From the NCBI GenBank assembly GCA_038087875.1, contig CM075983.1, positions 33,790,001-33,854,000 of the forward strand: 64,000 nucleotides of DNA, read 5' to 3'. Shown here piece after piece: positions 10,011-56,836 of the stretch. The number at the start of each line of letters is the position of its first letter. The first letter of the stretch is position 1. The DNA comes from Malacoraja senta. Taxonomy: Eukaryota. The notes below the pieces were generated by a model that worked only from the letters and a program-made list of their open reading frames with translations, made no database searches and was not told where the DNA came from. The position numbers and the translations under genes are program-made.

Positions 10011-11963
10011 TAAGTACAGGTACACCATCGATTTGCCGGCAACTGATCTTTAATCTGGACAAAATGTAACTGTTACATACTATATGGCCAATTTTACTTC
10101 AGAGTCACGTTTGTGACTACGTGAAGAAGACCCGTCAGCGCGCATGCGCGTCATTACGTCGGTCGCATTGGCGCACAGACAGCGGGAGGACAGAGCTCCT
10201 CCTGATGTAAGTACTTTTAGGGTATTTTTAAAGAGTTTTAAAGCTCCAGCTAAGTCTGAAACTTGTCAGAAATTTAGCTGGAGTAAAATAAGTTCCTTGA
10301 CTGTGGTGCTGTGCTCTGTGTTTTGTCACAGGCAGCACCATGGTGAAGACGAGCAGGGGAGGATAGAGCTCCTCCTGTGGTAAGTACTTTTAAAGTACTT
10401 TTATAGTTTAAAGCTCCAGCTAAGTGGGAAGCTTAGCTGGAGGGGAAAGTTTATTTTGTGGTGCTCTGTGTTTTTGATTACAGGCAGCACCATGATGAAG
10501 ACGACCAGGGGGAGGGCAGCCGCAGGTAAAGCATAGGAGAGCCGCGGGAATGCGGTCTGTCAGCGGCTGCCTCGTACCCCTGCACAGTCGCCGACCGGGA
10601 GCGGGGCGACTTCAGACTGAGTGCTAAAAAGCACCAAAGCCAACGCCTGTCGGGCGTAAGGCACGGGGAAGTCTGGGAGGCCCTTGGACTCAACTGAGTC
10701 AGGCCACAACGAGCCTGTACGGGGCTGGAGACGTTTTTTAAATGGTTCTCCCAAATGGAGCACCTCATCCAGTGGTTGCTCCAGAAACGCACACTCCGGG
10801 GAGGAGTCGTGTGGGCGGTAGGCTGCAGAAAGGCCACGCCGGCAGCACCTGGTAGAGGGCTGCTTAAAGCACCCTCATGCATGAGGTGAGTGCAGAGGGT
10901 CAGCTAAGGTCTGACCCCGACTCAGACTTGGAAATAGCGAAGAACGGCCGTTGTCAGAGGTCCATTCTCTGGCAGCACGATTCGCTGTCCAGTCAGAGTA
11001 TGGAGTGCCACTGGGAGAAGAGCTGGCCTCCACGATAGGGTCAGCTCAGTTCTGACCCGATTCTGACGGAGACTTTGTTGAATAGCGAAGAACGGCCGTT
11101 GTCAGAGGTCCATTCTCTGGCAGCACGATTCGCTGTCCCGTCAGAGTATGGAATGCCTCTGGGTAAGCGAAGACGGCCGTTGTCAGAGTTCCCATCTCTG
11201 GCAGTATGATACGCTGTCCAGTCAGAGTCTGGAATCACCAAGAGAAGGAGTAACTGCGAGTTGCTGAAGGTGCCAGCAGTGAACCGGGTGATATGGAGCC
11301 AGACGGGCGTGGGCGTGCAGTGCCCAGGAGATGAAGCTGCAGAGAATCCTGAAATTACTTGGCTCAGGAATCACGGCGTTCGCGAGAACGGTGGATGGAG
11401 GGCTTGTTTCGGAGACGCATCAAGAGGTACTAGGGTTGCTTTGTAGCACCCATTTTTTAGATAAATTGTCTCAGGGAAAGTGCCATTCGGCCCACCATTA
11501 ATTCCAAGATTGCAGTATTTTTCCCAGCCTAGCAACATACAGCCGGCAAACCTACTCTTCGGAGAGGACCTCGCCAAGAGTGTCAAGGAGATGGACGACG
11601 AGGCAAAGATGGTGGGCTTGATCAAGCCACCGGCAGTCGGCAAGTTTCCAAAATAAAGTACCCCTACAAATGAAGTGGGAACATGGTCAAACATCCACCA
11701 GGTACCAAGGAGGTAGGTGGGCCTGGTTCTCAGGTGCACATATCAAATGTGACACAACTTAAACTGGGGTACATTACATCTTTCTGGGATGAATGGAAGC
11801 AAATTACCTTAGCTCTGTTTATACAGAGTGTTATTCAAAGGTTTCGAATGGATTTCAATCCAAAATGTGATTTGCACATTCAGCATGTTCTTGGTAGAAC
11901 TATTCAGTTTTCATTAACAGAACAGATGGATGATCAGACTGCGCTTGCAAGCTTATGTGATAA

Positions 11964-12190: not shown

Positions 12191-14686
12191 GGGTGTAATT
12201 ATAAGTTTGTTCACCAACCCATCAATTTGTGTCTAATATTTTCCCAGGCCAAAAAGGATGGGGGATGTAGTATGGACATTGTAAGATGGAATTGTCACTG
12301 CCAAGCAACTGGGCAAGAGGATGCTATATGGCAACTCTAGAGCTTAAAGATGCGCATTACCCAATGTCTGTTTATTTGCAGGATATTTGAAATTCATCTG
12401 GATGGATCAACTATGGCAACAAAATTGTTAAAACCTCTAATAGGCATGCTGAAAGGCCAGGGTATAGGTGTTCATGGCTTATCTCGATGATATCTTGATT
12501 ACAGGGGTATCCAAGAGAACAGCTGAAGTAACAGGTGATAGTTGTTAAATCCAATTTTCAAAGATTGGGCATTAGACATCCAGAGGAATCCAAATTAACA
12601 CCTGACTATTTGGGTCACAATTGATTCAATTAAGTGACTCTGCCCAGGGAAAAAAGGGTAGAGCTAATTGACAGGTGTATCAAGCTAATTGAGACATTAA
12701 GGATACATTCGGGTCATTATAATAGACCTATGCAGTTTTCAGTAAAGGCTATTCTGATTTGCAATGGTGGATTCACCATGTGTCCAGAAGTTATAGCAAG
12801 GTAATGCTTGACAAGCCTTCCATGATTTTGCAGATGAATGTCAGTGCACTCCGGTGAGGTGTCACGGATACGAGTTTCAGCTATGGAGGCAGATGGACTG
12901 AGCAAGAGGCATCGTTTGTGCAGACATGGGCAATTAACTATAAAGACGCTTATAGCTCTAACAAATGTTATCTGCAATGTTCAGTTTCAGATTGACAATA
13001 ATACGCAAGTGGCATATACATTAATGTGACAGATTGGCTAATCACATTTGGGCTGGTGCATGGAAAAATATATTTCAGCTATTTATCTACCAGGTAGATT
13101 CTACATAGTAGCAGACGCCAACTCACGAAAGTTCCATGACAACATAGATTGGATGTTGAACCAGGAGGTGTTCAATAATATAGTACTTGTATATGAATGC
13201 CAGATATCGATTTGTTTTGCATCAAGGTTCAACCATCAGCAGCCTAAATAGGTTTCATGGAAACCAGACCAGGTGGCAGTTGCAATTGATACTTTGACGT
13301 TACATTGGGGTGGTATGTTTTATATATTTTCCTACCATTTTGCCTAATAGGTCGGAGTCTGCAAGAAATCAAGCAGGATGCTGCTTTGGGGATGCTTGTA
13401 ATACCTAATTGGCCGAATCAAGCATGGTTCCCTTTGATGTTACAGTTAGGGATCCAACCTCTTTTGGTGGTTCCCAAGCGTAGGAATTGACTGGAGCATC
13501 CGCTAACAAGGGAAAGTCATCTGTTATGTGATTGTATTGACTTGTTAGTTTGCAGGTTTTAAGAAGGCCATACCTGAAGCAAGGACTGACTGGGTGAACG
13601 GTGGACATGCGCACTGTAGCCTGGAGAAAGAGTACTCAAAAGGGGTATATTACTTATGTAAAAAAAAAATGTGAGCAATATAGTGTACAAAATAATATTG
13701 ACTGTAGTACTGCAGGTATTGTGGATATTTCAGAGTTCCTGTTGACACTCTACGATGATGAGGAGCTCAGTTATAGCACCATTAATACAGCTTTAAGTGC
13801 TTTGTCATCGTATGGTTTTGATGGGGTCAGGAAAGATCCTATTGAGTTTCATCATATCATAGCTGGATTGATGAAAGGAATTTCAACTCTGAACTTCCTA
13901 AACCCAGGTATATGGCGATCTGGGATGTAAGTGTGTTCCTCAAGATTCTTCGACAGTAGGTTCCTGTCATGTCTCTGAATTTGCCAGACTAATCATGAAA
14001 GTGTTTATGCTCTTGGCATTGGTTCAGCATAGCAAGTGCAGATTTTGCAAAAACTTCTGCTAGTCAGGATGGAAGTTCCTGAAGAGAATGTTATGTTATA
14101 TAATTGCGTACTGCTTAAGCAGAGCAGGCCAGGTGTCACAGGTTTGTTAAAATTGTGTTTCAGCATAACCTACCGATCCATGTTTATGTGTAATGGCACA
14201 TTTATTTTCATTATATTGAAGCTATAAAGACCTTAAGAAATGTGGAAACAGCATTGTTTATCAGTTACATGAAGCCACACAGGAGAGTGTTAGTGCAGAC
14301 TATCTCAAGGTGGTTTAAAGCAAATGTTGATTAAGGCAGGTATTAACACTGAAGTGTATATATCCTTTTTTCCACTAGTGCAGCAGCAACGTCGTCGGCT
14401 AGGGCGATGGATGTTCACAGCGGCCATTTTTAAAATTTATTTTTATTTGACCATCGGCCGATCGCCGATCAGAGAAAGGCTGTTTGCAAATTCAGGATTA
14501 ATTCCTGTTTAGTTTCCACTGGGATAGAGGGGTTACTGGTTGTTTTGATTATTCAAATCAATTGTTACTGCATGATATTCACATTTCATTTTTAACGCAT
14601 TATTAATTGTTTCTCATCGAAAGTCAATCAATGCAGTGAGAAGCCGGGATTTCGATCTGCGGCATAAAATCACAGAGCTTTGAACC

Positions 14687-18913: not shown

Positions 18914-19372
18914 ATTTTACTTCGGAGTCACGTGAGTGACTACGTGAAGACCCCGCCAGCATGCATGCGCGACATATCGTCTATCGCATTGCGTAAACAA
19001 CAGGCTGGGGGGAGCGCTGCTCCACCAGCGGACCAACCTGAAGGTAAGTTTTACATTTTTCCAGGTTGTGTTTTGCAGGAATCTCTGTAAGCCTTACAGA
19101 GGTCCTGCTTTATTTCGGCGAAGTCGGCCGGGCCGCGGGAGACTTTATGGACTGCGAGGAACCCCAGTCGCTGACCACAGAGTCGGGGAAACCCGCCCAC
19201 GTATCGCGGGGAACCCGCAATGGAGGCCCCGATGCGGGTAGAGGGCGGCGGTTGAGTTCCCTTTTTCGAGTCGCTGGCAGTGGAGCCAGCAGCTTCAAAC
19301 TGGTGGCAACCCACTGGAGGGTAAGCCAATATTTTTTCCAGGGACCGCAGAGGCAGCTGTGAGAACCGCAGG

Positions 19373-19760
19373 GACATGGATCTCGTGGGGATCCCTTCTA
19401 CAAGGACTGTAGAGGGAGTACCGGCTGCAAGAACCGCGGGGATACCAGGCTCGGTGGAAAAACCCGACATGGATCTCGCGCGGATCCTTCTGCAATGACT
19501 GCAGAGGGAATTCCGGCTGCAAGAACCACGGGGATACCATGCTCGTGGAAAAACACGACATGGATCTCGCGGGGATCCCTTCTACAAGGACTGTAGAGGG
19601 AGTACCGGCTGCAAGAACCACGGGGATACCAGGCTCGGTGCAAAACCCGACATGGATTTTGCAGGAAACCCCTTCTACAAGGACTGTAGAGGGAGTACCG
19701 GCTGCGAGAACTATGGGGGGAAACCCGATATGGGCTTTGCGGGGAATCCCTTCTACAGGG
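19373..19760 (+). repeat. ~92-bp GC-rich tandem array (~4.5 copies) in the DIRS #2 leader
   Basis: Units beginning gacatggat at 19373, 19466, 19557 and 19649, with a partial unit at 19727. Confidence 0.9.
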
Positions 19761-21100
19761 GCCACAGGGAACCACTACGGAGACCGCAGACTGCGGGTAG
19801 CGGGCAGCGGTCGAATCTGATTTTTCCAGATATGACCTGCAGGTAAGTTCTTTACTCTGGGGTCGTATTTTGTTCCACTTCTGTGTTACTGGGAAGGAAC
19901 TATGGACAAGTCAGTAACGAAGTCCAAACGGGCTGCATCCAGACTGGCTGAACCGCAGAAGTACGGGCAGTCAGCAGCAGCCGACTGCATCTGGATCGCA
20001 ATCTATGCGGTCAGCATTCTCCGTCCCGGCACCTGTACAGTCTGAATCAACACTACAGACTGGCGGAAAGACCAAGCAGAGGACGGACAGGCCATAGACT
20101 CGGACGAGTCGGGCCGTGAAGAATCACCGCCGGCAGGCAGCGACCGAGATCGCATATCCCGCATGGGCGGTTGATGGAGCAGATGCTCCAATGTGACGTG
20201 CTCCAGGATATGGAGCCTTGTCACCATGGGCCTCCTAGGACGGCCATGGCAGAACCTCGTTGAGGGCTGCATAATGCATCTCCCTCGATAGAGGGGAGCA
20301 TTAGGAGTCACTTCTGGGCTGACTCTGAAGACATGGGGTTGGCTGAAGATGCCACAAGTCTCCTATGCACCCACCAGCAGACACTGAAGCTGGTGAAAGC
20401 CGAAGGCCATACGATCAGAACAGAGGTCTTTTTTAGACCACGGCCCAGAATGGCCTTCGTGGAAGATGTGCCAACCCCGCAAGAGTGTGGAAGGCATGTC
20501 AGGCAGCAGCTCCTGGTTCAGGGTTGCAAATTTCCTCCCACTCAAATGAGCCGGAGTGGTAGAGGGTGCTACTGAAGTGCACATATGCCTGAAGCGACAC
20601 CTGTTTCAGGGTTGCAATTCCTCCCACTCGATAAAACAGATGGATGCAGATGGTGCTTACCTAAGGCAGCTCCTGACTCGGGTTGCATAAGTCCTACCAT
20701 TCGGATGGATGAAGCTGATTGAAGGATGAAGCTGGTTGAGGCAGCTCCTTGGCAGGTTGCATAAGTCCTCCCATTTGGAGTATGAAGGAGAAGCTTCCGA
20801 TTACGGATACTAGTTGGTAATATTTACACTTGGGGTTTACAGATCAGATTAGCTTATACTGCACAGCATTCAAGCACCAGAGTTCTCGAAAACATGGTTG
20901 GCGTTGCCTTTTTAGGCAGAATTGCAATTGGGGCAATAAGGCCTGTTCATTGTTAACAGTTACAACTCGTTTGTGCAGTATAGACATTTCTGAATAGGGA
21001 ACTTCGTGACTGTTAACTACCATGGGATCAGTTTCCATTCACAAGGCACCAGAGGTATTTCAAAATTTAGCTGGAATTGAGTTCTCATCCATCCAGTTAA

Positions 21101-22518: not shown

Positions 22519-24813
22519 CCATCCAGTTAAATTTAAGTTAAATTTACGTTGATACCAACTGAAATGTCTGGAACTCCGCCCTGAGGCAAGAGATTGGAAT
22601 CAATTCTCAAGTACCATTGTTACCAGACCTTTCCTATTCCCGGCTGAAATTATCAAAGTCACCATGATGGACGAATAGTATCCAGCATTGCTCCATTAAC
22701 TTTTCATCAATTATCTTCAGTTAATTACAAACGGATGCTATTGCTCAAAGATGGAAAATTACTAATATCAGCTCTAAATTACGGAGACGGATGGGATTCG
22801 CATGAGTTACCAAATGTTCAGTTATATGGTATCAACTACTTACAGACAACAGGTGAATTCTGTGGATTAAGGGGTGCATGCTTAAGTCCAAGTTGATTCA
22901 CTTTGGTGGAGGTATATGTTGATCACATGGGTATAATCAGTCAAAGTATCTGGTGATAAATGACCTAACCTCATCTAGCACTGGTATATCATCAATTGTC
23001 AATACGGAATTGATGTTGGATCGCTAAGTGTTTAATGACATTGTGGCTCGATGAAACACTGAAGATCGAAATGTCTGCATCCAAGGCTCAATCACCAGTT
23101 GCAAAAATGTGGCATATCAATGGCGATGTATGTATTCTCGCTACACTGGGGAGGAATGTCTTCCTCCATTTTGCCTCATCAGACGGGACTTGCAAATTCA
23201 GCAAGCTCCTGCTTCAGGTATTTTCATAGAGCCTGCCTGGCTTCTACAGCCATTGTTCCCACTGATGTGGGGAATGATGACAGAACCTTATATGGTTAAT
23301 TCTAGACATAAAATTTGCTGGTTTTACCGTGACTCGGGGAACCATCCTTTGCAGGATATAACCTATGCTTTGATTACAGACTCTGCGAAGGCCATTCCTG
23401 CGGCTCAGGTTGTCAAACCATACCTTGGACGTGCTCACTGCAGATGCAGGGATAGCACCAAACAGTAGTAAGGGGATGGGAGGTATTTGTTTTATGTTAT
23501 ATTACATTCAGCTTGGCACGGATGACTGATGGCTTGAAGGTCAGTTTTGTATGGGATTGACAATTATCAAGTTAAGTGCTATTTACTGTGCCTAAAGTGC
23601 CTTCTCATCATGCTGGCTGCGGGGAACAGAATCCACTTCTGTTGGGTCTCACCCTCTGGGATTCAGGTAATGAAGGGTATCTTCAACTCTAAACCTCCCA
23701 GGCCTGGGTACGCAGAGATATAGGATGTTAACATTGTGCCACGTTGTTCGTCGGTGGGCTCCAGCTACATCCCTGTCTTTGGTAAAACTCGCCTACAAGT
23801 GGTTATGCCCATGGCACTGAGTTCAGCACAACGGGTCCAGACATGGCATTAGCAGTAACTGGACACGATGATAATATCTGTGGGCTAAATGACATTATGT
23901 TTATGACATAGCCAAGCAGAATAGACCAGGGGCATCAGGTCTAACTAGATTGTTCATATATCTCATGGACCTTTGGTTGTGTGTAGTCACACATCTACAC
24001 CAGAATGTAGGTCTCTAGAGCATTAAAGACACTGAACTAGCAATATTGTTAGTTACATTAGCCTTGTAAGAAGGGATTGCTGCAGACCATCTCCAGGTGG
24101 TTTTAAAGGGGCTGGCTTATACAGGAGTGAACACTAATATTCAAGTCTCAATCCACCAGGGCTGCAACTACCACAGCAGCAGGGTATGGAGGTTAGGGGT
24201 ACCACATCCTAGGGACTGCAGGGTGGTCAAACTAACAATCTTTCCAATCATTTATAACAACCCATTATCAGATTGGGGGTAGTTGCCAACTATGCTAGTT
24301 CTGTTTCATAGTTCCCTCTCGGTTGAGTGAGGTTACTATTATCATTGGTTGTTTATTAAAAGCATCAACATGTCTATATCTAAGTCATGTCTGAATGCAT
24401 TATTAATGATCACTCATCAGTAGTCAACTGATGCAGTGTGTGAAGCATGGACTCATTTCCACGGCATGAAATCACAGATCTTTAAAATCTTCACGTAGTC
24501 ACTCACGTGACTCCGAAGTAAAATAGTAAGATTAAACGAGAACTTACCAGTTTGAAGTTTGATCTTTATTATATGAGGAGTTACGTCGAGGGATTACATG
24601 CCCTCCACGCCCACCCTCTTGTAAAGATCAACTGGTATCCTAGTTCTGATCTTACTATGTTTATTTCATTACTATTACTGTGATTCCACACCGTTGCTTT
24701 GAAGAATGTCGCGCATGCGTGCTTGCGGGGTCGTCACGTAATCCCTTGACGTAACTCCTCATAAAATAAAGATCAAACTTCAAACTGGTAAGTTCTCGTT
24801 TAATCTTACTATT

Positions 24814-28419: not shown

Positions 28420-29388
28420 GTCATAAGTCAGCAAGAGGTCGATTTTAATAGAATGGTTATGAGAATAAGTTCACAAGAATCATAAAAAAGGACAATAAGA
28501 GCTTCTGTGGGATTATATTGAAGAGTATACTGAAAATTAACATTGTTTCCCTTGAGGGTGAGATAGAGGAATTAATAATGGAAAAAAATAAACAAACACA
28601 GAATGAATATTTTCTATCCAAAAAAATATCCCAATATTGGCAGAAAATCCAGGGGTGAATAGGCCTGACATATTTTCAAAAAGCAATCATTATCACTCAA
28701 GGAAAAGTACACGTCAAACTAATAAAACTAAAGATTGACAAGTCCCCTCAATCTAATGACTTGCATTTGAAAATCTGAAAAGTAGTGGCTGCAACAACAG
28801 TCTATGCATTGGTTGTGAGCTACCTGAATCTCCAAGTCCCAACAGAGTGGAAACCTGCAAAGAGAATTCTCCTGGTCAAGAAAGGAGGGGACCTGAAAAA
28901 GGAAACAGGCCAAATAGTTAGTGGAAAAAGTGCTGGAATACATCATTAAGGAAGTGATAGCAGGACATTGAGAAAATCATCATACAATCTGGCACAAATG
29001 TCATAGTTTCACAAAAAATAAATTATCTCTGACAAATTTACTAGAGTTGTTTGAGGAATTAATAAGCAAGGAAAATTCAAGATTCAAGGCAGTTTATTGT
29101 CATGTGTCCCTGATAGGACAATGAAATTCTTGTGTTGCTTCAGCACAACAGAACATAGTAGGCATGACTACAGAACAGATCAGTGTGTCCATATACCATT
29201 ATATAAATATATACACACATGAATATGGGAAACCAGAATGTTAGTAAAATGCAGTCAATCAGATGCCATATAAAGTATTACTGCATAAGATGTTTATGAC
29301 ATTGAAGATAACATATTTGCATATAGAATGAACTAATAGGAAAGAGAGTCTGGATAAATGGATCATTTGCTAAGGTTCAACTATTTAC
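28420..29388 (+). mobile_element. Old degenerate CR1 LINE, interrupted by DIRS #3 and resuming at ~33935-34035
   Basis: ctaaagattgacaagtccc, aagaaaggaggg, ctctgacaaatttactagagttgtttgagga and caactatttacaa resemble CR1 RT coding sequence. Confidence 0.6.
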
Positions 29389-29907
29389 AATAGGAAGATT
29401 AAACAAGAACTTACCAGTTTGAAGTTTGATCTTTATTTTATGAGGAGTTACGATGAGGGATTACGTGAAGAAGACTGCCAGCCCGCATGCGCGTCAACCT
29501 TCAAAGTAGCGATGTGAAATCACAGATAACAGTTGTTGAACTGATTATAGGAAGATTCGAGAAACTAGAACTACCATTTGACCTTCATGAGAAGAGGGTT
29601 GGGAGCGGAGGGCACGTAATCCTTCATCGTAACTCCTCATAAAATAAAGATTAAACTTCAAACTGGTAAGTTCTCGTTTAATCTTCCTATTTTACTTCGG
29701 AGTCACGTGAGTGACTACATGAAGATTTCAAAGCTCTGTCATTTTGTGCCGCGAACACGAGTCCATGCCACACACTGCATTAGTTGACCAGAGTTCATTG
29801 AAATGATAATGCACTCAGACATGACATAGCTTTAAAACATGCTGATGCTTTTTAATAAACAAATGATATATAAAAAATAATAGTAACTCCTCATATCCGG
29901 GAGTAAA

Positions 29908-30840
29908 CTATAGAACAGAACTTAAAATTGAGTTTGTAAACAGCCCCGGCCTGGCAATGGGTTTGTTATAAAAAGATTGGAATGTTCGCTCATTGGACCA
30001 TCCTGCAGTCGCTAGGATGTGGTCCAGCGGAACGTCCATAACCCTCGCTGCTGATGTTGTTGCAGCCCTGGGGGAGTGAGATTTGAAAACATCAGTGTCC
30101 ACTCCTGCACAAGCCAATACACGCCTTAACCACCTGGAGATGGTCTGCACTGATACCTTCTTGTGTGTTTTTTTATAACTAACAAACATTGCCAGTTCAG
30201 TGCCTCTAAGGTTCTTACTGGCCTTAAAATACTGTTGTATATGTGTGACCACACACAATCGAAAGTCCATAGGGTATGCCATAAATTCTAGTTTTAGACC
30301 TGACACCCCTGGTCTGCTCTGCTTGATTAGCTCATGAATATAAAATGTTATTTTATTGGCAGATGTAACCATTCTGTCCAGCCGCAGTTTATGCAACGAC
30401 TGGACCTGTTGTGCTGAAACCAGCGCCATGAGCATAATCACTTTAAAAGTGAATTTGACCAAAGACAAGGATGTAACTGGAGCCCACTGCCGAAGCATCG
30501 TTAGCACAATGTTGACATCCCATATCTCCGTGTACCTGGGCCTGGGGGGATTTGTGTTGAAGATACCCTTCATGAATCTGGATATCAGCGGGTGAGACCC
30601 GACAGAGTGGTGTCCCGATCCCAGCAACAAGTATGACGACAAGGCACTCCTGGCACAATTAATGGCACTATAACTCAATTTCTCGTCAAAGAACAATTTT
30701 GAGAGAAATTCAAAGACATCAGTTATACGTGCCGTGTCATACATTATGTTGGACTGCGAACAGAACACTTCCCATCTTTTGATATAAGAGATGTACTGCT
30801 TCTTGGTACTATCCCTCCAAGCCGTAGTGATCACGTCCAC
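29908..30840 (-). CDS. DIRS tyrosine recombinase (YR), 310-aa open frame; first catalytic Arg appears mutated to Gln
   Basis: SAQQVQSL (AQRVQ in DIRS #2), FKSHSPRAA (HxxR), AGWS, FYNK. Confidence 0.88.
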   Translation of the reverse strand: MDVITTAWRDSTKKQYISYIKRWEVFCSQSNIMYDTARITDVFEFLSKLFFDEKLSYSAINCARSALSSYLLLGSGHHSVGSHPLISRFMKGIFNTNPPRPRYTEIWDVNIVLTMLRQWAPVTSLSLVKFTFKVIMLMALVSAQQVQSLHKLRLDRMVTSANKITFYIHELIKQSRPGVSGLKLEFMAYPMDFRLCVVTHIQQYFKASKNLRGTELAMFVSYKKTHKKVSVQTISRWLRRVLACAGVDTDVFKSHSPRAATTSAARVMDVPLDHILATAGWSNERTFQSFYNKPIARPGLFTNSILSSVL

Positions 30841-30878
30841 AGTTCAATCTGACAGTCCGAGCCTCAGGAAAGGTCTTC

Positions 30879-31250
30879 TTAAAATCTGCAATTCAATAAA
30901 TTGATTCGATCATGCAGCAGATGGCCCTCCCGAGTCACGGGATGATCCAGCAAATTTCTGCGTTTGGAAATAACCATAAATGGTTCTGTTATCATACCCA
31001 ATATCAGCGGGAACCATTGCTTTGTAGGCCAGTCAGGCACTACCAAAATGCCTGATGCGGAATCTTGCCGGATTTTTTGTAAGCACCGACTGATGAGGCA
31101 AAATGAAGGGAATGCATAGATGAACATTCCTCCCCAGTGAAGCGAGAACGCATCTATCGCCACTGCCCCTGGGTCTGGCTCCCATGCAACATACTTCGGT
31201 AACTGGTGATTGAGCATAGATGCAAACAAAAATGATATCCGGTGTTCCAT
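30879..31250 (-). pseudogene. DIRS pol C-terminal Dam-like (N6-adenine) methyltransferase domain
   Basis: LFASMLNHQLPKY...DAFSLHWGGMFIYAFPSF...ILVVPDWPTKQWFP matches the DLFAS / DAF..W / YAFPP / P.WP..W pattern of the DIRS1 MT domain. Confidence 0.8.
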
Positions 31251-32574
31251 ACCGAGCAACAATGTCGTTAAACACTTTATGATCCAACATCCATTCTGTG
31301 CTGTCATTAAATGTTCGTGACCTGGTGTCCACCACCATATTAAACCTACCTGGCAAATAGGTAGCTGAAATACAAATGTTTCTTTCGATACACCAGTGCC
31401 AAATAAGGTTAGCCAATTTATCACAGGATAATGACTTGATTCCACCCATGTGATTAATGTATGCCACGGCTGTAGTGTTGTCAATCTGTAGTTGAACATG
31501 CAGATTATGCATATTCCCACAATAAGCTTTCAACCCATATAATGCTCCAAGCATCTCTAGGTAGTTAATACCATGTAACTGAAGAATTGATGATTCCACC
31601 CATGTGATTAATGTATGCCATCGCAACTAGTGATGGTATTAGTAGCTCCCCATCCTTGAGCACTAGCATCAGTTTGTAATATAACTGAAGGTTTGCTGAC
31701 CAAAATGTTACTGGAGCTATGCCAAATATTGGTCATCCACCATTGTAACTCAGAAATAGCTTCAGCAGGTAACCGCATAGGCCTGTTAAAATGACCTAAA
31801 TGGTATCTGAGTGCTTGCTCCTTTGCACATTGTAAATTTTGATAATGCAAAGGCCCAAACTGTGCAGCTGGAAAAAACAGCCTCTAATTTGCCAATTATA
31901 CTGGCTACTTGTCGAATAGATGGTTGTTCCATAACAACAAGGTTGTTGCAGGCTTCTATTAATTCTAATCTCTTGCCACAGGGCAGAGTCACAGACATAG
32001 TAATAGAGTTAATGGTAAATCCCAAATAATCAACAACTCTAGATGGTATCAACTTGGATTTAACTGGATGGATGAGAAACCCCAATTTCTCAAACGTGAG
32101 TTTTGTGGCTGAAACAGCTAATTCAGCTAATTTCAGAGTTTTCCCTATGATTAGGATATCATCCAAGTATGCCATGACAATTTGATTTTGAGCTCTAAGT
32201 AGCCCAAGCACTGGTTTCAATAATTTGGTAAACAATCTGGGGGCTGAAGTTAACCCATTGGGCAACGCATTAAACTGCCACAGTTGCCCCATCCAGCTAA
32301 ACATTAAAATATCTCTGGTGATCCCTGTAAATGGGTACTGAATAGTATGCATCTTTGAGATCAATGCATGCCATAACGCATCTTTTGGAAATAATCTACC
32401 ACCAACTTGTAACTGGTCCAAACACCCCATGTTCCGGAAAGAACCAGACCCACCTACCTCCATGGTTACCGGTGGTTCTATGGAAGGCCCAAAGGCCCAT
32501 GATGCAGGTTCTATTTCCACCCCCGAGGTTTGGTGGGTAGGATTGCTGAAGTGTGCGGATTTCGCATCTTCCAC
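31251..32574 (-). pseudogene. pol: DIRS #3 RT-RNaseH, frameshifted, with an N-terminal RT deletion near 32395
   Basis: VGGRL directly abuts the ..IDLKDAY region; YLDD motif present. Confidence 0.85.
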
Positions 32575-32596: not shown

Positions 32597-33722
32597 CTAA
32601 AAAAGACCTCTGTCCAGAGAATTCAGCTTTTGAGCTGCCACCAGCTCCAGCGAACGGCTTACTGCTGATGGAAGCGTAGGGATGCTGCCGCCGAAATAGC
32701 TGAAAAGGCTAGTTACTGGAGCCTTGATCAGCCCGACAGCATTTGCTTCTTTGTCCAGGTCCTTAACCTGTTTCTGCAGATCTTCTATGAACAGAAAATT
32801 TGGCGGCTGAACATTGCTGGCCCTGCACAATCTCGCAAATTTATGGTTCAATGCGGGTCGGATGGCGTTCTTCCGAAGACTGTTTATTTCGAACTGTGCA
32901 TTGCACATCAACGCCAAGGCATCCTGTTGTACGTCTGATAGGGGTCCCCCATCCACAGACCTGGCGAATGCCGTAATGCCTGACCCCAGCAATTTTAGGA
33001 TTCCCTGGAGCTTCATCTCCTGGGCTTTGATGCCCCCATCCAATATATCCCCAGTTGGAACTGTTCACAGCCGGCACATTGAGTGAAGCACAATTTGCAG
33101 GAGTATGGTACTTAGCGGCTGTTCCCACCATCACCTGTTCCTGCAGCTGGTGTGATGTGAGGTAATTAATGCTTGCAGCTAATTCCTCTTGCAGCGGCTC
33201 ACCTGTTGGCGAGGGTATCGCGAATTTTGAAGCCATGGCAGGTAATTCCTGTGCCTCACATATGTCGTGCATTCTGGTATGCTCCCCAGACATACCTCCA
33301 GATTCCGAGTCAGTCCCTCTTCAGAGTGGGAGACATAGTGCAGCCCTGGAGCAGGCGCTGCCACGGGCCCCCGAGGAGACCTGCGCTGATATAACTCCGT
33401 TCCACGAAGAATATCATGATAGAGCATCCTTTCCATAAGGTGCTCCATCCGGGATTATCGCCCGAAGACGCTATCCATTGTAGGAGGCGAACCCTCCTGG
33501 CCTGACTTGTTCGAGTCAACAGGCCTGTCAGACTTTTTCTTGGCTTTCCCCCCCTTTCGGGGTTGCCAAGGTGCTTTCGGCAAGCACCAAGTCTGAAGTC
33601 GCTGACCGCACCATCAGCGACTCGGGTGGCGAAACCGCCGGCCGCCGGCTACCCACACTCCCGCGGTCCTCCGTAGCTGGTTTCCCCACGGCCTATCTGA
33701 ACTTCGCCCTGGATTTATCCAT
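32597..33722 (-). pseudogene. gag: DIRS #3 gag-like ORF1, frameshifted
   Basis: ATG at 33722 (gaactatcATGgat); fragments KYHTPANCASLNVPAVNSSNW and QDALALMCNAQFEINSLRKNAIRPALN. Confidence 0.7.
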
Positions 33723-34286
33723 GATAGTTCGAACTGGAACTCTGTAATCAAGATTTACAACGAACAAAACGACCTCAGAATAAGTTTAAAACTTACCTGT
33801 AGGGCTTTTAATCTTACCGCTGGAGGAGTGACACGCCTCCCAGCCAGAACGTGCGCCATGCGTTAGACGTATTGACGCGCATGTGGGCTGGCAGGCTTCT
33901 TCACGTAGTCACTCACGTGACACCGAAGTAAAATTCATGTTAGATGAATGGACGAGTATGTCCCAGCCACATTAATTAACAACAGAGTCATGTGGGAAAG
34001 TAAATTGTGGGAAGGATACAAAGAGTCAGCTGAAGAAGAAATAAAAAAATAAAAGCCTGGAGATATTGGAAATTTGAAATACAAACAGAAAATTCTGGAA
34101 ATGCTCAGCAGATCAGGCAGTATCGCTGGAAAGTGAAACATTTTAAACGTTCGTATTAAAGACCCTTCGTCAGAATGAAGTAAAGAATACATGAAGGTTA
34201 GGTTAGTGGGCAAATATTTAGTAGATATGGTAATATGTCTATATTTTCACATTAATGAAATTAGCTCCATTGATAGGAAGAATTAA

Positions 34287-36255: not shown

Positions 36256-37125
36256 GACGTGGCGTCGAAGGACGAGAAGCCGATGCAAAGTGGAAGCCAA
36301 ATAGCTGAACGGAAACGAAGCCGAAACGCCAAATAACCGAAAGTGTACGAAGCCAAAACGCCAACTAACCGAAAAGGTGGGATGCCTCAAAGCAAACTAA
36401 CAGAAAGGGCAGGACGCCTAAAAGCCAACTAACCGAAAGGGTGGGACGCCTAAAAGCAAACTCACCAAAAGGCCGCTCTGCCGAAACACCAACTCACCGA
36501 AAGGCTGCGTCACCTACAAGCCAACTCACCGAATGGCCGCTCTGCTGGAAAGTCAAATAACGGACATGACGTCGCTGGGGGGGGGGGGGGGGGGGGGACG
36601 GGACTTGTCAGCGATTGGTCCAGACCCAAGTAATAGGTGACTGGGCACCCTGAATCCGAGCACCAAATTGTAAGCGGCCGAAGGAGCGCATCCCTCGGGA
36701 CAGCTCCCACTCTCCCACGGCCACGTCCGCCTTGTCTCCCCCATGCGGCCGCACTGTGATGGGCTGTGTGTCTGCAGCGCCGGTTGGAGCATAGGTGTGG
36801 GACGGCCCTGGCCGTGGGAGAGTGGGGGCTGTCCCGAGGGATGCGCTCGGGACAGACACCCACCCTCCCGTCTTCCCCGGCCAGTGATGGGATGGATGCG
36901 GGGGTCTGGACCAATCGCTGACAAGTCCCGCCCCCCAGAGACGTCATGTCCGACTTTTCGGCAGAGTGGTCATTCGGTGAGTTGGCTTGCAGGTGATGCA
37001 GCCAATCGGAGAGTTGGCATTTCGGCAGAGCTGCTCTTCAGTGAGGTTGCTTTTAGGCATCCCACCCTTTCGGTTATTTGACTTCCACTTCTTTGCTTCG
37101 GCTTCTCGTCCTTCGATGCCACGTC
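36256..37125. mobile_element. Non-autonomous foldback-type DNA element with ~55-bp TIRs, subterminal repeat arrays and nested internal inverted repeats
   Basis: gacgtggcgtcgaaggacgagaagccg / cggcttctcgtccttcgatgccacgtc; inner inverted pairs ~36600-36627 with ~36902-36929 and ~36684-36722 with ~36810-36848. Confidence 0.8.
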
Positions 37126-37129
37126 CGGG

Positions 37130-39265
37130 TACCGCCATCACACGTGGCAACAGATGATCCCCCACGCCGGGTCCCTCCTTCGTTCTTGGTGGCCCCCTGC
37201 CGGGTAGCTGTCAGCGGCGCAGGTCGCCAATGCTCTCAATTGGTCCCTTGCTCTCAACCATCCACCTCGCGATCCACCTCTCGACGATGCTCCCGCAACC
37301 CTGAAACGGCCGTCCTGTATCCATCCATCCTGTCATCCGAGCGCTGTGCTGCAACAAACTCCACGTAATCAACACCATGGTCCATGGCCGCCACAGCCTG
37401 GAGGGCCGGGCGAAACAGGGCGTCAGCGTGTTGAACTTCCCGGCCACGTGCTGTACGTCCGTCGTGAACTCTGACATAAATGCCAGGTGTCTTTGCTGTC
37501 GAGCGGACCAGGAGTCTGACACCTTGGCCAAGGCGAACATTAAGGGCTTGTGGTCACTAAAGGCCATGAACGGCCTGCCCTCCAGGAAGTATCTAAAGTG
37601 ACAGATGGCCAGGTAATGGGTGAGGAGCTTCCGGTCGAACGCGCTGTAGTTGCGCCCGGGGGGCCTCAGCTGACGGCTCAGAAAAGCTAGTGGCTGCCAG
37701 CGGCCATCAATGAGCTGATCCAACACCCCACCCACGGACGTATCGGAGGCGTTTACCATGAGAGCAGTCGAGGCTGTGGCCCGCGGGTGTACTAGCAAGG
37801 GGCTTTGGCCAGCGCCTCTTTCACACCGTCAAACGCGGCCTCGGCCTCGGTGGACCACACGAGGTCCCGTGGCTTACCAGCGAGGCACTGAAAGAGGGGC
37901 TGCATGATTCTGGCAGCTGCCAGCACGAAACGATGGTAGAACTTAACCATGCCGACAAACTCCTTTGACAGTGAGCGGCCGGGGAAACTGCCGGATAGCC
38001 TCTACCTTAGTGGGTAATGGGGTGGCGCCCTGTGAGGTAACGTGTTGCCCCAGGAATAAAATTGTGCGGAGGCCAAACTGGCAATTGGCGGGATTGACTA
38101 CGAGTCCATGGTCCTGGAGCCGCTGGAACAACGCCTGCAGGTGCGTGAGTTGTTCCTGTTGGGACCGGCTCACAACTAGAATGTCAGCTAAGTAGATGAA
38201 AACAAAGTTCAATCCCCTACCCACCATGTCCATCAGTCTCTGGAACGCCTGCGCGAGGTTTTTATGCCGAAAGGCATACGGAGCAACTCAAACAGCCCAA
38301 ATGGGGTGATGGTGGCGGTCTTTGGGACATCGTCTGGGTGAACAGGGATCTGATAACAACCGCAGACCAGGTCCACCTTTGAAAAAAAGGTAGCTCCTTA
38401 AAGATTAGCTGAGAAGTATTTGTGGGATTTGTGGGACAGGGTAGTGGTCTGCGGTCGTAACGGTGTTCAGGCGCCTATAATCCCCGCATGGTCTCCACCC
38501 CCCAGATGTTTTAGGGACCATGTGTAATGGGGATGCACATGGTCTACCTGAGCGGCGTACGATCCCCATGTCCTCCATCAGTTTGAATTCTTCCTTGGCG
38601 ATGCGCAGCTTGTCGGGCGGGTGGAATGATGGTCTCGTGGTGGGGATATGATTCACTACCACGTGCTTGAGGGTTGCAGCATGGAAACGGGGGGTGAGTA
38701 GCTCTGGGAACTCTGCGAGCAAGGAGGCACACGAGCCCTCGACCTGAGCCACCACTTTCAGCTGCGGGCTGGGAGGTTCCACAGGTCGTGGGGTTGCGGG
38801 GCTGGGGCCCGCAGTTGGAACGAGGCGCCTGCCCCGTACGTCCACCAGGAGTGAAAAAGCCCAAAGGAAGTCAGCGCCCTGCAGCGGCTGGGCCACGTCC
38901 GCAAGGGTGAAGGTCCAGTTGTATGGGCGGGAGTCGAAGTTGAGGGATAGGGTCCGCGTGCCATAGGTGCAGATAGTACTACGGTTGGTGGCAGTCTGGA
39001 CGGGGCCTCACTAGCCAGCACGGGTGTCCAACCCAGTCGGGGGGAGGTATGCTGCGATGGCCCCTGATTCGACCAGGAAACAAAGTCCTGAATGGCGGTC
39101 TCGCACGTAGAGGCGGTTGTTTTGGCCGATCGGGACAGCCCTAACTGACGATCGGCCGAGGCGTTTCCCGCAAACATGCAGGGAGGCGGCATCAGCGGGC
39201 ACCACTGGTGCTTACCCCGGTCTCCGGCAGGCGGCTGTGGCGCGGCGACGGTAGCAGAGGTTCGG
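37130..39265 (-). mobile_element. Gypsy (Ty3-like) internal fragment: gag end, PR, RT, RNaseH; degenerate, no LTRs seen
   Basis: FLVESGA (PR); [11 protein letters not shown] and FIYLADILV (RT); ASDTSVGGVL, YSAFDRKLL and SDHKPL (RNaseH). Confidence 0.88.
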
Positions 39266-40459
39266 GCATCTCTGCGGGTCAGCTGTTCGTCTGGTGTGTA
39301 GTACGCCAGGATAGGTGCCGTTGTCAACAGCTCCTTGATCTATGACATTGCCATGTCATGTTCTGATGACCATTCCCACTCTGCTTCCTTGTGGGTCAAT
39401 CTCCTCAAAGGCTCGAATGTGACCGACAACATTGGCAGGTATCTTGCCAAAGAGTTTACTCTGCCTTGTAATCTTTGGATTTCTGTTGGATTGGTTGGGT
39501 TGGGCATCTCTAGGATAGCATGGATCTTCTTCGGATCTGGTTTCAGGCCACGATCTGTGACTATATGTCCTAGAAATGTGATACAAGTCGTTTTCACTAC
39601 CGACTTCTTCCGGTTCAGCTTAATGCCTCTGTCTCTGCATCGCTGAAGAAGATCTTGCAGTCTTGCATCATGATTCCTTTCTGCATCTTCTCTGGTGTCC
39701 CCTGCTCCGAATAAGATGATGTCATCTGCAGCACATTCCACTCCCTTTAATCCTTCTAGGGCTTGTTGCAGCTTCTTCTGGAAGATCTCTGCACTTACCT
39801 TCAGTCCAAATGGCAACCTCTTCCAGCGATATCTCCCAAAAGGGGTGTTCATGGTTGTTAGGAAACTGCTCTCCTCATCTAGTTTGCAGTAGAGGTATCC
39901 TGACTTCAGATCGAATTTGGAGAAAATGTTCTCCTTGGACAGCTCAGGGATTACATCCTCTAGTCTGTGGATCTCCCTTTTCAGGACTTTGTTGAGGGGT
40001 CTAGGATCTACACAGAACCTCAACTCTGTGCTGTTCTTCTTCTCCGAAATGACCAGCCTGCTACACCACCACCGCACTGATTTACACGCAGCGTCTTATC
40101 TCTGCGTGCTCACTGACCTGCATACCATTCCTCTCAGGCATGCAGCTAGTCCGGTCGCTGAGCGTTGAATCACTGATTCCTGAAAGCTTTTCAAAGCATT
40201 TTTTGCTAATCATCATAGCATCTATTTGATCCACAAATCTTCATTTTCACCGCTGCCAATATGTTTTGATATATGCCTATTTACGAAATAGGAAAGATTT
40301 GCACATATTAGACGGAGAAAGATGGCTCCACACACACTCGTGTTGGGATCAAAAGCAGGAATGATTTATTTCCAAGTCAAAGGTCACTGACTGATTTACT
40401 GAGCATGTGCGAGATGAATACAGCTCATATGCATAAATTACATGGATATTGTCACAACA
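39266..40459 (-). mobile_element. Mag-type Gypsy 5' fragment: LTR (40262-40459), tRNA-Leu-type PBS, mostly deleted gag, RT
   Basis: LTR tgttttga...cacaaca; minus strand TGGCAGCGGTG immediately inside; RT FSKFDLKSGY, FGRYRWKRLPFGL and ADDII. Confidence 0.82.
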
Positions 40460-54891: not shown

Positions 54892-56835
54892 TCAAGCAAA
54901 CTCCCCGTAACGTTCAGGCGGCTTGACCAGACGCCCGAAGCGGGTATGCAGCCCGCCTCCCCCCCCCTTCGAAGGTAGAGTGGGCACCGGGGCAGGAGCG
55001 GCGACAGGTGAACCGAAAGGGGAGTGAGCAGGAGGGGGAGAACGAGGAGACCGGGGAGGAGACAAGGTCACCGCAACGGGCACGCGAGCGGGAGATGGCT
55101 GATGGGGGGGGCCAGGAGGAGCAGCGGGAGAACGGGGCGCCAAGGGTTGCGAGGGCAGAGGAGCGGGAGGCAACGAGGCGGCAACCGGGGGAGCAAAAGG
55201 GGCTGCGGGAGGCGGAGCGGGCTCGTTGACCGGCAGCAAATGCTGGCGGGACCGGCGGTAGATTGTGCCCTCGTAGTCAACCAGGTAAGAGCGCGGAGAG
55301 TCGGCAAAGCCGACGACAACAGCCAAGCGGTGGTGTCCGGAGGGGGACTGCATCCGGACGACCTGGCCCTCGAAGAGGGGCTGAAGGGGACGGCATGACT
55401 TGTCGTGGGAGCGCTTCTGGACGACCTGTTTCTGGGTAATACGCTTCTGGACAGCAGCAGGGCTGCGGACTGCGGGCCGTAGCGACCGCTGGGAGACAGG
55501 GATTGGAGGGCGAGTGGTGCGGGACATGAGCCGTTGAGCCGGTGAGCCCATGGCAGGGTCGCGACTAATATTTCGGAGATTCAGTAGAGCGAGATAAAAA
55601 TCCGAATGCGACAGTCTGCAATGTTCCAGCAGCTCCTTGGCACTGCGGACGGCGCGCTCAGCAAGGCCGTTGCTCTGCGGGTACTCCGGGCTGCTGGTGA
55701 TGTGGCGAAAGTTGTAGGCGGCGGCGAATGCGCGGAACTCAGCACTCGTGAACTGGCCCCCGTTGTCAGACTGCACAGTCACAGGAATGCCAAAGGTTGC
55801 AAAGAGGGGTTGCAACGTCCCGATGACCGCAGCAGAAGTGAGGGAGTGCAGACGCTTAATCTCGAACCAGCTGGAGTAAGAGTCGACCAGGACCAGGAAA
55901 TGTTTGCCACGCCACTCAAATATGTCCGTAGCGACCGCCATCCACGCCAGGGCGGGGGCAGGCTGTTGCAGGAGTGGCTGGCGTTGCTGGTGGGGAGAGA
56001 GGGTATTGCAGGTGGAGCAGGCAGAGACCCTCTCCCGGATGTCCTGTGCCATGCTGGGCCAATAAAATTGGCTCTGGGCCTGGGACAGGGTGGCATCGGC
56101 ACCGGGATGGCCATTGTGGGCAGTTTGGAAATAGTGGTCCCGCAGAGCGGCAGGCACCACAACCTTGTGGCCCTTCACCACCACGCCTCCCTGCAGCACA
56201 AGTTCGTCCCGGACTAGGAAGTAGGGCGCAGCACCAGCCGGCAGGGGTGAGCGACGGTCAGGCCAGCCGCGACGGATGACGTCTATAAGCTGTTGCAGGG
56301 CAGGATCATTGGCGGTGTGGTGAATCAGGGACTGCAACTGCTGGGAGGGCATGAAGTTGACGTTTAGCACCATCAGGTCGGATGACTCGTACGGGTGGCG
56401 GGCTGTAGAAGCCAGCGGTGCGCGCGACAGCGTGTCGGCCACAAACATGTCCTTGCCCTTGCGGTACACGATTTGAAACGTGAAGCGTTGGAGTTGCAGC
56501 ATCATGCGCTGCAAACGGGAAGAGGCAACGTGGATCGGTTTGTTTAAGATCGTGACCAGCGGCTGGTGGTCGGTTTCGATAGTGAAGGTGTTACCTATAA
56601 TGTAGTCCCTGAACTTCGAGCAGGCAAACACCACGGCAAGGAGCTCTTTCTCGATCTGAGCGTAGCGTTGCTCGGTTGGGGTCATGGTGCGGGAGGCGTA
56701 GGAGACAGGTAGCTGCAGGCGGTCGTGGATCTGCAGGCAGGCGGCACCGAGACCGAAACTTGATGCATCGCAGGTAATGACGATAGGGCGCTTTAAGTCG
56801 AAGAACTTCAGAGTGGGGGCGCGAACCAGCCGGGA
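54892..56835 (-). CDS. Gypsy RNaseH-integrase part of pol, out of frame with the RT part
   Basis: TCDASSFGLGA, YAQIEKELLA and TDHQPL (RNaseH); HNGH...CSTC, TDIF, SDNGGQF and SNGLAERAV (IN); Pro-rich tail ending TRFGRLVKPPERY. Confidence 0.9.
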   Translation of the reverse strand, partial: SRLVRAPTLKFFDLKRPIVITCDASSFGLGAACLQIHDRLQLPVSYASRTMTPTEQRYAQIEKELLAVVFACSKFRDYIIGNTFTIETDHQPLVTILNKPIHVASSRLQRMMLQLQRFTFQIVYRKGKDMFVADTLSRAPLASTARHPYESSDLMVLNVNFMPSQQLQSLIHHTANDPALQQLIDVIRRGWPDRRSPLPAGAAPYFLVRDELVLQGGVVVKGHKVVVPAALRDHYFQTAHNGHPGADATLSQAQSQFYWPSMAQDIRERVSACSTCNTLSPHQQRQPLLQQPAPALAWMAVATDIFEWRGKHFLVLVDSYSSWFEIKRLHSLTSAAVIGTLQPLFATFGIPVTVQSDNGGQFTSAEFRAFAAAYNFRHITSSPEYPQSNGLAERAVRSAKELLEHCRLSHSDFYLALLNLRNISRDPAMGSPAQRLMSRTTRPPIPVSQRSLRPAVRSPAAVQKRITQKQVVQKRSHDKSCRPLQPLFEGQVVRMQSPSGHHRLAVVVGFADSPRSYLVDYEGTIYRRSRQHLLPVNEPAPPPAAPFAPPVAASLPPAPLPSQPLAPRSPAAPPGPPHQPSPARVPVAVTLSPPRSPRSPPPAHSPFGSPVAAPAPVPTLPSKGGGGGLHTRFGRLVKPPERYGEFA

Positions 56836-56836
56836 T

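Follow-up and report, generated by a model that had tools for sequence, protein, structure and literature searches.

Conserved splice-like signals in the leader and around pol of a DIRS1-type retrotransposon family of Malacoraja senta suggest expression of the recombinase by splicing

The splice-site motifs found in the leader of a DIRS1-type element, upstream of its gag start codon, are features of the whole family and not of single copies. Three copies of this element (#1, #2, and #3) are located in the window, i.e., the stretch of 64,000 nucleotides of Malacoraja senta DNA that was analyzed. Comparison of copies from across the genome further suggests, with good confidence on our part, that pol is removed as an optional intron for expression of the tyrosine recombinase (YR). 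The complete expression plan, which combines partial splicing of the leader, a frameshift or a continuous frame into pol, a pol intron for YR, and an unspliced template, we regard as moderately probable.

According to this plan, one transcript would start in the left inverted terminal repeat (ITR). U1 would bind one of two leader donors, D1 or D2, and a part of the RNA would shed a leader intron of 47–125 nt and become mRNA, with hairpins over the donor and the acceptor and the short spacing between them holding leader splicing partial. Gag-Pol would be produced by a -1 frameshift at the heptamer U UUU UUA in one set of lineages (group S) or in one continuous frame in another (group N). Splicing from a third donor, D3, at the gag/pol boundary to an acceptor, A3, at the start of the YR frame would take out pol and fuse the Gag/linker frame to YR. 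Finally, a packaging or replication signal, most likely the D2 hairpin, would be removed by splicing or would need unspliced RNA, leaving spliced RNAs uncopied. The coordinates of the features are given in Table 1.

Table 1. Features of the three DIRS copies in the window (a slash marks the putative exon-intron boundary)
Feature	Copy	Position	Strand	Remarks
Left ITR	#3	33872..33934	-	Inverted match to 29435-29497; sharp 5' boundary in 30 loci
Leader donor D1	#3	33812..33817	-	GCG/GTAAGA (GT at 33817), just 3' of a GC-rich hairpin
Predicted hairpin with donor D2 on the 5' arm	#3	33767..33805	-	CAG/GTAAGT, GT at 33796; single folds
Leader acceptor	#3	33742..33760	-	TTACAG ending at 33742; itself within a small predicted hairpin
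ATG of gag-like ORF1	#3	33720..33722	-	ORF broken in copy #3
Slippery heptamer U UUU UUA at gag/pol overlap	#3	32598..32604	-	The next base is G, hence an acceptor reading is also possible
Donor D3	#3	32452..32463	-	ATG GAG/GTAGGT, GT at 32457, phase 0 in pol frame
pol (RT/RH/MT)	#3	30879..32457	-	Frameshifted; Pfam RVT_1, E 1.9e-14
Predicted optional pol intron	#3	32457-30886	-	D3 to A3
YR acceptor A3	#3	30886..30900	-	TTGCAG ending at 30886; phase 0 in YR frame; overlaps last pol codons
YR ORF	#3	29908..30885	-	One internal stop near the start
Internal complementary region (ICR)	#3	29613..29725	-	Matches both termini
Right ITR and extension	#3	29386..29497	-	Contains AATAAA (29437-29432) and CTG/GTAAGT (29414)
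Leader	#1	10184..10511	+	Donor-hairpin-acceptor-ATG module duplicated, 75% identical
Donor D3	#1	11710..11718	+	GAG/GTAGGT, GT at 11713
YR acceptor	#1	13540..13555	+	TTTGCAG ending at 13555
Leader	#2	19035..19904	+	Donors 19044, 19321, 19843; mutated acceptor before ATG 19902
YR acceptor	#2	23371..23379	+	TGATTACAG ending at 23379

Identity and size of the family

Copies #1, #2, and #3 belong to a DIRS1-type retrotransposon, as evidenced by the ITRs, the ICR, reverse transcriptase (RT), and the N-terminal domain of the recombinase. DIRS1-like elements are defined by ITRs, ICR, and ORF order in PMC3266345 and PMC9210276. Pairs of a left end and an ICR were found in the fetched genomic copies as well, the RT ORF yields the RVT_1 match listed in Table 1, and the YR ORF follows pol, a 311-aa part of it matching Phage_int_SAM_4 from Pfam (E 1.8e-7). 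The YR catalytic domain gave no Pfam match, its H-x-x-R region being seen by eye; similarly, Pfam yielded no match for 30882-31526, where the RNase H and methyltransferase motifs were recognized by eye only. The left ends begin with ATTT in nearly all of 51 cases, to be compared with the NTT start of DIRS1-like elements. The ITRs, the ICR, the right extension, and the order of gag, pol, and YR are the same as in that group, as are, probably, the ATT start and the RH and MT domains of pol.

A 33-nt motif from the termini has 14,326 matches in the genome of 1.94 Gb; at two matches per full element, we estimate a family of roughly 7,000 copies. We fetched 60 genomic stretches, covering 91 of the first 100 listed terminal-motif matches, and 51 of these stretches held a left end. 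Together with the three copies from the window, the 51 left ends form 18 leader lineages (single linkage at 80%), with a median between-lineage leader identity of 63%. The window copies represent three lineages. Their leaders, previously described as barely alignable, are divergent (59–68% identity) but can be aligned.

In most lineages, the left ITR contains a candidate promoter (33890-33870 on the minus strand in the window), consisting of GCGCATGCGC-like and CACGTG motifs, which we take to be NRF1-type and E-box sites, respectively.

Leader donors and acceptors

All leader sites listed in an earlier note on this DNA are present in the three copies at the positions it gave. In copy #3, the donors at 33817 (D1) and 33796 (D2) and the acceptor at 33742 delimit candidate introns of 76 and 55 nt that end 20 nt before the gag ATG at 33722. 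The sites of copy #1 are GTAAGT at 10207 with the acceptor at 10331, and GTAAGT at 10380 with the acceptor at 10483. In copy #2, sites are found at 19044, 19321, 19341, 19829, and 19843, followed by the ATG at 19902. Copy #2 also features a mini-exon-like stretch of 13–16 nt between an acceptor and the last donor (19829-19843, plus strand), and, 5' of it, a tandem-repeat expansion of the leader (19373-19760).

At positions 91–200, a leader site with at least eight of the nine bases of the donor consensus MAG/GTRAGT was observed in representatives of 15 out of 18 lineages, the best donor of the remaining three scoring 7/9, while the reverse strand yielded 1/18 and dinucleotide shuffles 1.15 expected; since the lineages share ancestry, these counts are not independent trials. 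At the level of copies, the same threshold is reached in 50 of 54. The donor varies between GTAAGT and GTGAGT, i.e., by changes that U1 pairing allows. In the alignment of 17 lineages, from which copy #2 was omitted because of its long leader, the block around D2 is the best conserved stretch after the ITR. The GT of D2 is lost in three lineages that keep D1, D1 is decayed in seven that keep D2, and none of the 17 has lost both, although the latter observation is not significant alone (about 1.2 expected).

In 12 of 15 lineages (the three lineages with no recognizable ATG were omitted), the 26 nt that precede the gag ATG include a YAG trinucleotide with at least 8 pyrimidines out of 14, as compared with 21–35% at random places; the acceptor of copy #3 itself falls below this pyrimidine cut-off. 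The leader donor and acceptor are conserved above both the flanks and the nulls in the multi-copy alignment and shuffles, as the retention of splice signals suggested previously would have it.

The relatives of the three copies that were compared are the best-scoring matches and thus biased towards the copies of the window. Among 29 relatives of copy #3, D1 reads GTAAGT in 24, D2 reads GTAAGT in 26, and the acceptor CAG is present in all. Only the second donor of copy #1 (10380) is poorly kept, with GTAAG in 8 of 29 relatives, most copies carrying a shifted CAG/GTA in its place; the copy #1 counterpart of the donor at 33796 reads CTAAGT. The acceptor of copy #2 that had been called decayed is mutated in that copy, but the change is private, AG being present in 22 of 24 relatives with the motif (30 loci).

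The distance between the leader donor and acceptor ranges from 47 to 125 nt over the lineages and is often only 47–61 nt; in lineages lacking D1, it equals 49–61 nt (four lineages) or 69–70 nt (two). For human short introns, a threshold near 65 nt is given in PMC4463651, and introns of 43–65 nt are spliced in human according to 10.1101/784868. These vertebrate limits are applied here by assumption, and the lower limit of the host itself may differ.

Predicted structure of the leader

When the leaders are folded one by one, D2 falls on the 5' arm of a hairpin in most lineages, and the acceptor frequently lies within a second one. Support for the D2 hairpin is moderate: over 17 lineages, 75% of the cells in the hairpin are paired, compared with 70% upon shuffling (0/500) and 29–51% when the structure is slid, the tested structure having been drawn from the same sequences. 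RNAalifold yielded no consensus structure for the leader. The hairpin persists, with compensating changes, in two lineages whose D2 has lost the GT (copy #1 and L113); hence structure alone may explain part of the conservation.

We propose that the leader donor is very probably bound by U1 and that it likely works like the major splice donor of retroviruses. As D2 is situated in a predicted hairpin and often only 47–61 nt from the acceptor, removal of the leader intron is probably inefficient; that the intron is removed at all seems to us just somewhat probable.

Expression of the recombinase

Candidate splice sites lie not in the leader alone: GAG/GTANG in phase 0 is observed at the gag/pol boundary (D3) in all 14 lineage representatives that contain the region (15 given). 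The third position of the D3 valine codon is invariant, against a background of 6 out of 101 four-fold pol columns. The codons 3' of D3 are conserved at third positions as well, and therefore the signal at D3 could be part of a more extensive RNA element.

At the other end of pol, the YR frame opens at TTNYAG (A3) in 44 of 48 aligned copies, three of the four exceptions being interrupted elements. The T before A3 is kept while the encoded amino acid varies (I, G, N, A, T, V), a pattern seen in 2 of 127 background columns; the arginine encoded exclusively by AGR at A3 is weak evidence (background 5/13). A stop in the YR frame occurs within 10 codons upstream in 30 of the 37 copies where the site pattern was found, and in L091, L093, and L107 the TAG of the acceptor is itself the stop. 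Stops at or just before A3 exclude frameshifting into YR upstream of this site. Further, in copy #3 and in lineages 2, 4, 5, 6, and 11, the first ATG 3' of the acceptor is not in the YR frame; YR therefore requires an upstream exon that is in frame with it, such as the one supplied by D3. As both D3 and A3 are in phase 0, splicing pol out would give a Gag-YR fusion. The closed upstream frame, the out-of-frame ATG, and the conserved peptide that follows the acceptor make D3-A3 splicing the simplest route to YR. The proposal that splicing serves the recombinase is thus favored by comparative evidence, except that D3, instead of the leader donor, would be used.

Several other routes were considered and rejected. 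Joining of the leader donor straight to the YR acceptor is ruled out by the out-of-frame ATGs. A start from an ATG in exon 1 or the use of a donor just inside gag is ruled out by phase 1, as worked out by hand. A frameshift at the pol/YR overlap would have to occur with no conserved slippery site and with stops at or near the YR acceptor.

The last of these routes is part of a broader alternative, in which the leader serves packaging or replication through RNA or single-stranded DNA hairpins, its resemblance to splice sites is fortuitous, and YR is translated by ribosomal frameshifting. It would account for the hairpin that is kept by compensating changes in copy #1 and L113, and it agrees both with replication of DIRS-1 via single-stranded cDNA, as described in PMC7192593, and with the proposal of Poulter and Butler of frameshifting into YR in Ngaro-like elements, as quoted in PMC13003380. 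Yet it predicts neither the consensus-type variation of the donors (GTRAGT) nor the presence of at least one donor in each of the 17 aligned lineages. The stops around the YR acceptor and the lack of a conserved slippery site at the pol/YR overlap also stand against it, and phase 0 is kept although the acceptor is situated elsewhere in distant families. We therefore consider it improbable, and D3-A3 splicing remains the preferred explanation of YR expression. The Gag-YR fusion, if true, would account for the delivery of the recombinase to the particle and the cDNA.

Translation of pol

In the lineages of group S, to which copies #2 and #3 belong, the heptamer U UUU UUA is situated where gag and pol overlap, and gag ends soon after it. 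From the heptamer to D3 and the pol start, the -1 frame is stop-free and the length a multiple of three in 7 of 11 copies with both sites, the in-phase distances taking five values (111, 114, 117, 135, and 138 nt); the remaining four copies break this frame. In pseudoknot-free folds, no stable conserved structure was found 3' of the heptamer, where a stimulatory structure would begin 5–9 nt downstream (z < -2 in 1 out of 10); some sequences have a small GGCC stem. In group S, pol is probably reached by a -1 frameshift at the heptamer. The lineages of group N do not have the heptamer, and the least broken copies from lineages 0 and 3 show gag continuing in frame into pol. Since pol either shares the frame of gag or follows a heptamer with an open -1 frame, the suggestion that the leader donor is spliced to express pol is not upheld.

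A specific form of this route would join the leader donor to TCTTTTTTAG where gag and pol overlap and thereby place the ATG that precedes D3 near the 5' end. This ATG would start Pol if D3 is unused, or YR if D3 is joined to A3, and no frameshift would be needed. In the M. senta genome, G is the next base after the heptamer, and in group S lineages D3 is immediately preceded by ATG GAG, the start context being strong; however, group S may be one clade, and thus the co-occurrence of the two features may be a single event. On the other hand, splicing does not explain why the -1 frame between the heptamer and D3 is open and in phase at five lengths and in distant families. Moreover, the heptamer is followed by T, not G, in three distant families and is lacking in group N, and an out-of-frame ATG intervenes between the heptamer and ATG GAG. 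Given these facts, such splicing is quite doubtful, and the -1 frameshift in group S is preferred.

In group N (e.g., L104, L113, and 10494-11713 of the window), the shared gag/pol frame, with no slippery site, offers no evident source of free Gag; the most abundant lineage, with 1,659 exact motif copies, belongs to this group. One DIRS copy, L129, lacks almost all of gag, its leader being joined close to the slippery site.

Search for spliced genomic copies

Intron-less copies, suggested in the earlier note as a check, were not found: the exon end of copy #3 (D1) is joined to an acceptor in 0 of 361 genomic copies, and that of the commonest lineage (lineage 3) in 0 of 1,659. A probe for the lineage-3 donor gave three matches out of 1,659, all of them representing a 21-nt deletion at an AG/GT microhomology that removes the donor. 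The probe for the D2 junction in the family of copy #3 gave no matches, with the probed copies not counted genome-wide, and neither did the lineage-7 junction probe, run with no positive control. Probes for the D3 junction had five and one matches (copies not counted), all explained by small deletions, an insertion, or a point change, and none joined to YR. The probes (NNBB/NNBH) detect only those next exons that fit these letters, as known acceptors do. At the resolution of blastn, the short elements L111, L129, L137, and L141 have no breakpoints at D3 or A3. The contigs of a sequencing run (X1) that appears to be genomic, their total length being close to the genome size, likewise contain no joint across the leader, an observation that does not bear on splicing of RNA.

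In DIRS-1, marker introns are lost upon retrotransposition, and RT acts in trans and copies spliced RNA, according to PMC7192593. If so, the absence of spliced copies implies that spliced RNA is excluded from replication or that splicing is rare; it fits the lack of splicing equally well.

The last point bears on the possibility of a leader donor that is bound by U1 but rarely, if ever, used for splicing. U1 has roles in transcription and polyadenylation, and the donor would boost the former or block premature polyadenylation, the acceptor being mostly inherited; splicing between pol and YR would still be possible. Such a role would be consistent with the spacing of 47–61 nt in many lineages, with the position of both donor and acceptor in predicted hairpins, with the lack of intron-less copies, and with the perfect donor after AATAAA at the 3' end, which has no acceptor role (both motifs in 34/48 copies). 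It does not explain why YAG and the pyrimidine tract are kept before the ATG in 12 of 15 lineages despite differing surrounding letters, or why the distant locus L163 has a comparable unit of 54 nt before its gag ATG, and the human introns of 43–65 nt mentioned above are spliced. We consider this possibility unlikely and retain partial splicing of the leader in the plan.

Distant relatives

Related pol genes (27–46% identity) were found in 19 metagenome loci, six families of which held the 5' region. Both TTTTTTA and a phase-0 donor are present in four of the six, and in three of these four the heptamer is followed by T, so it is not an acceptor. One of the other two families has a weak donor only, and one, with a long overlapping YR ORF, has neither. 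The same pairing of donor and acceptor is observed in distant DIRS (40–44% identity), with the acceptor at a different position: in 6 of 10 distant loci, a strong phase-0 acceptor is located 273–276 nt (about 92 codons) before the YR SW motif, and this is exactly where the YR frame of L162 and L163 opens. This acceptor overlaps the conserved pol motif FPPFS that forces pyrimidines. A clear leader donor and acceptor were found in one of five distant loci with a leader, namely L163, where GTAAGT is followed by a 54-nt stretch ending with TAG 3 nt before the gag ATG.

These data allow for a tentative, and somewhat speculative, generalization to an animal-wide programme of DIRS1-type elements, which would comprise a hairpin-gated donor with a packaging leader, a -1 frameshift, a pol intron whose removal fuses Gag to YR, and replication of unspliced RNA only.

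Comparison with known retroelements

Splicing of the leader or of pol in DIRS1-like elements was not encountered in our literature search, although Repbase or Dfam annotations or supplements of papers may already record the sites. The available parts of PMC3266345, PMC9210276, and PMC3783388 contain no mention of "intron" or "splic", whereas the sequences considered here point to splicing. For Ngaro, the stated proposal for YR translation is frameshifting (quoted in PMC13003380), whereas splicing is suggested for the DIRS1-type family studied here; this frameshift guess is the only statement on YR translation that we found in the literature. Similarly to our candidate leader intron, Penelope and Chlamys-3_cRei have a short intron in the 5' UTR, with a length of 75 bp in the case of Penelope, that precedes the ORF and is kept after retrotransposition, as stated in PMC8557442. 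These elements differ in belonging to another subclass, having a single ORF and no second intron around pol, and being supported by RNA. Goodwin and Poulter reportedly mentioned spliceosomal introns in some YR retroelements in 2004.

The predicted plan resembles that of retroviruses. HIV-1 has a splice-donor hairpin, a packaging signal, a UUUUUUA frameshift site, and a 3' gene expressed from spliced RNA. Likewise, the DIRS family has a donor hairpin before gag, the same heptamer, a 3' gene presumably expressed by splicing, and unspliced RNA as the putative genome. In contrast to retroviruses, there is an acceptor before gag, YR is predicted to be expressed as a fusion via a donor at the gag/pol boundary and not via the leader donor, and LTRs, integrase, and env are absent. 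In the Ty1/copia group (Drosophila copia, Arabidopsis EVADE), much of pol is removed to form a spliced gag mRNA, and unspliced RNA is replicated; that splicing yields Gag only, while splicing in DIRS would yield a Gag-YR fusion.

The proposed plan bears on the question of how DIRS elements translate ORFs 2 and 3 and, above all, the YR frame, which has no usable start of its own. For this family, the predicted junctions are exact (33817 or 33796 to 33742, and 32457 to 30886). A retained leader intron, if true, would add DIRS to the few intron-keeping retroelements and point to the place of a candidate packaging signal. The family may also affect host splicing, given its approximately 7,000 copies with several strong donors in each.

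Other features of the elements and the window

In the right extension, AATAAA is followed about 18 nt later by CTG/GTAAGT (29437-29409 of the window, minus strand); both motifs are present in 34 of 48 copies, and the donor was observed in 44 of 48. AATAAA and a donor follow each other in this order in the distant loci L170 and L171 as well. This donor could let U1 suppress polyadenylation, and the stretch is also constrained by ICR pairing.

A second set of the three DIRS copies, about 100% identical to the first, is located roughly 106.8 kb further downstream on this contig (33937000-33930739 region; L001, L031, and L062), which reflects either a recent segmental duplication or an assembly duplicate. 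Positions 1-2272 of the window are occupied by a tandem array with a 64-bp period, about 90% identity, and long stop-free frames. Finally, the GC-rich regions 54892-58987 (minus strand) and 36422-40095 contain stop-free frames of 655 and 716 codons and are probably other mobile elements; a 660-bp inverted repeat is located at 36422-37084.
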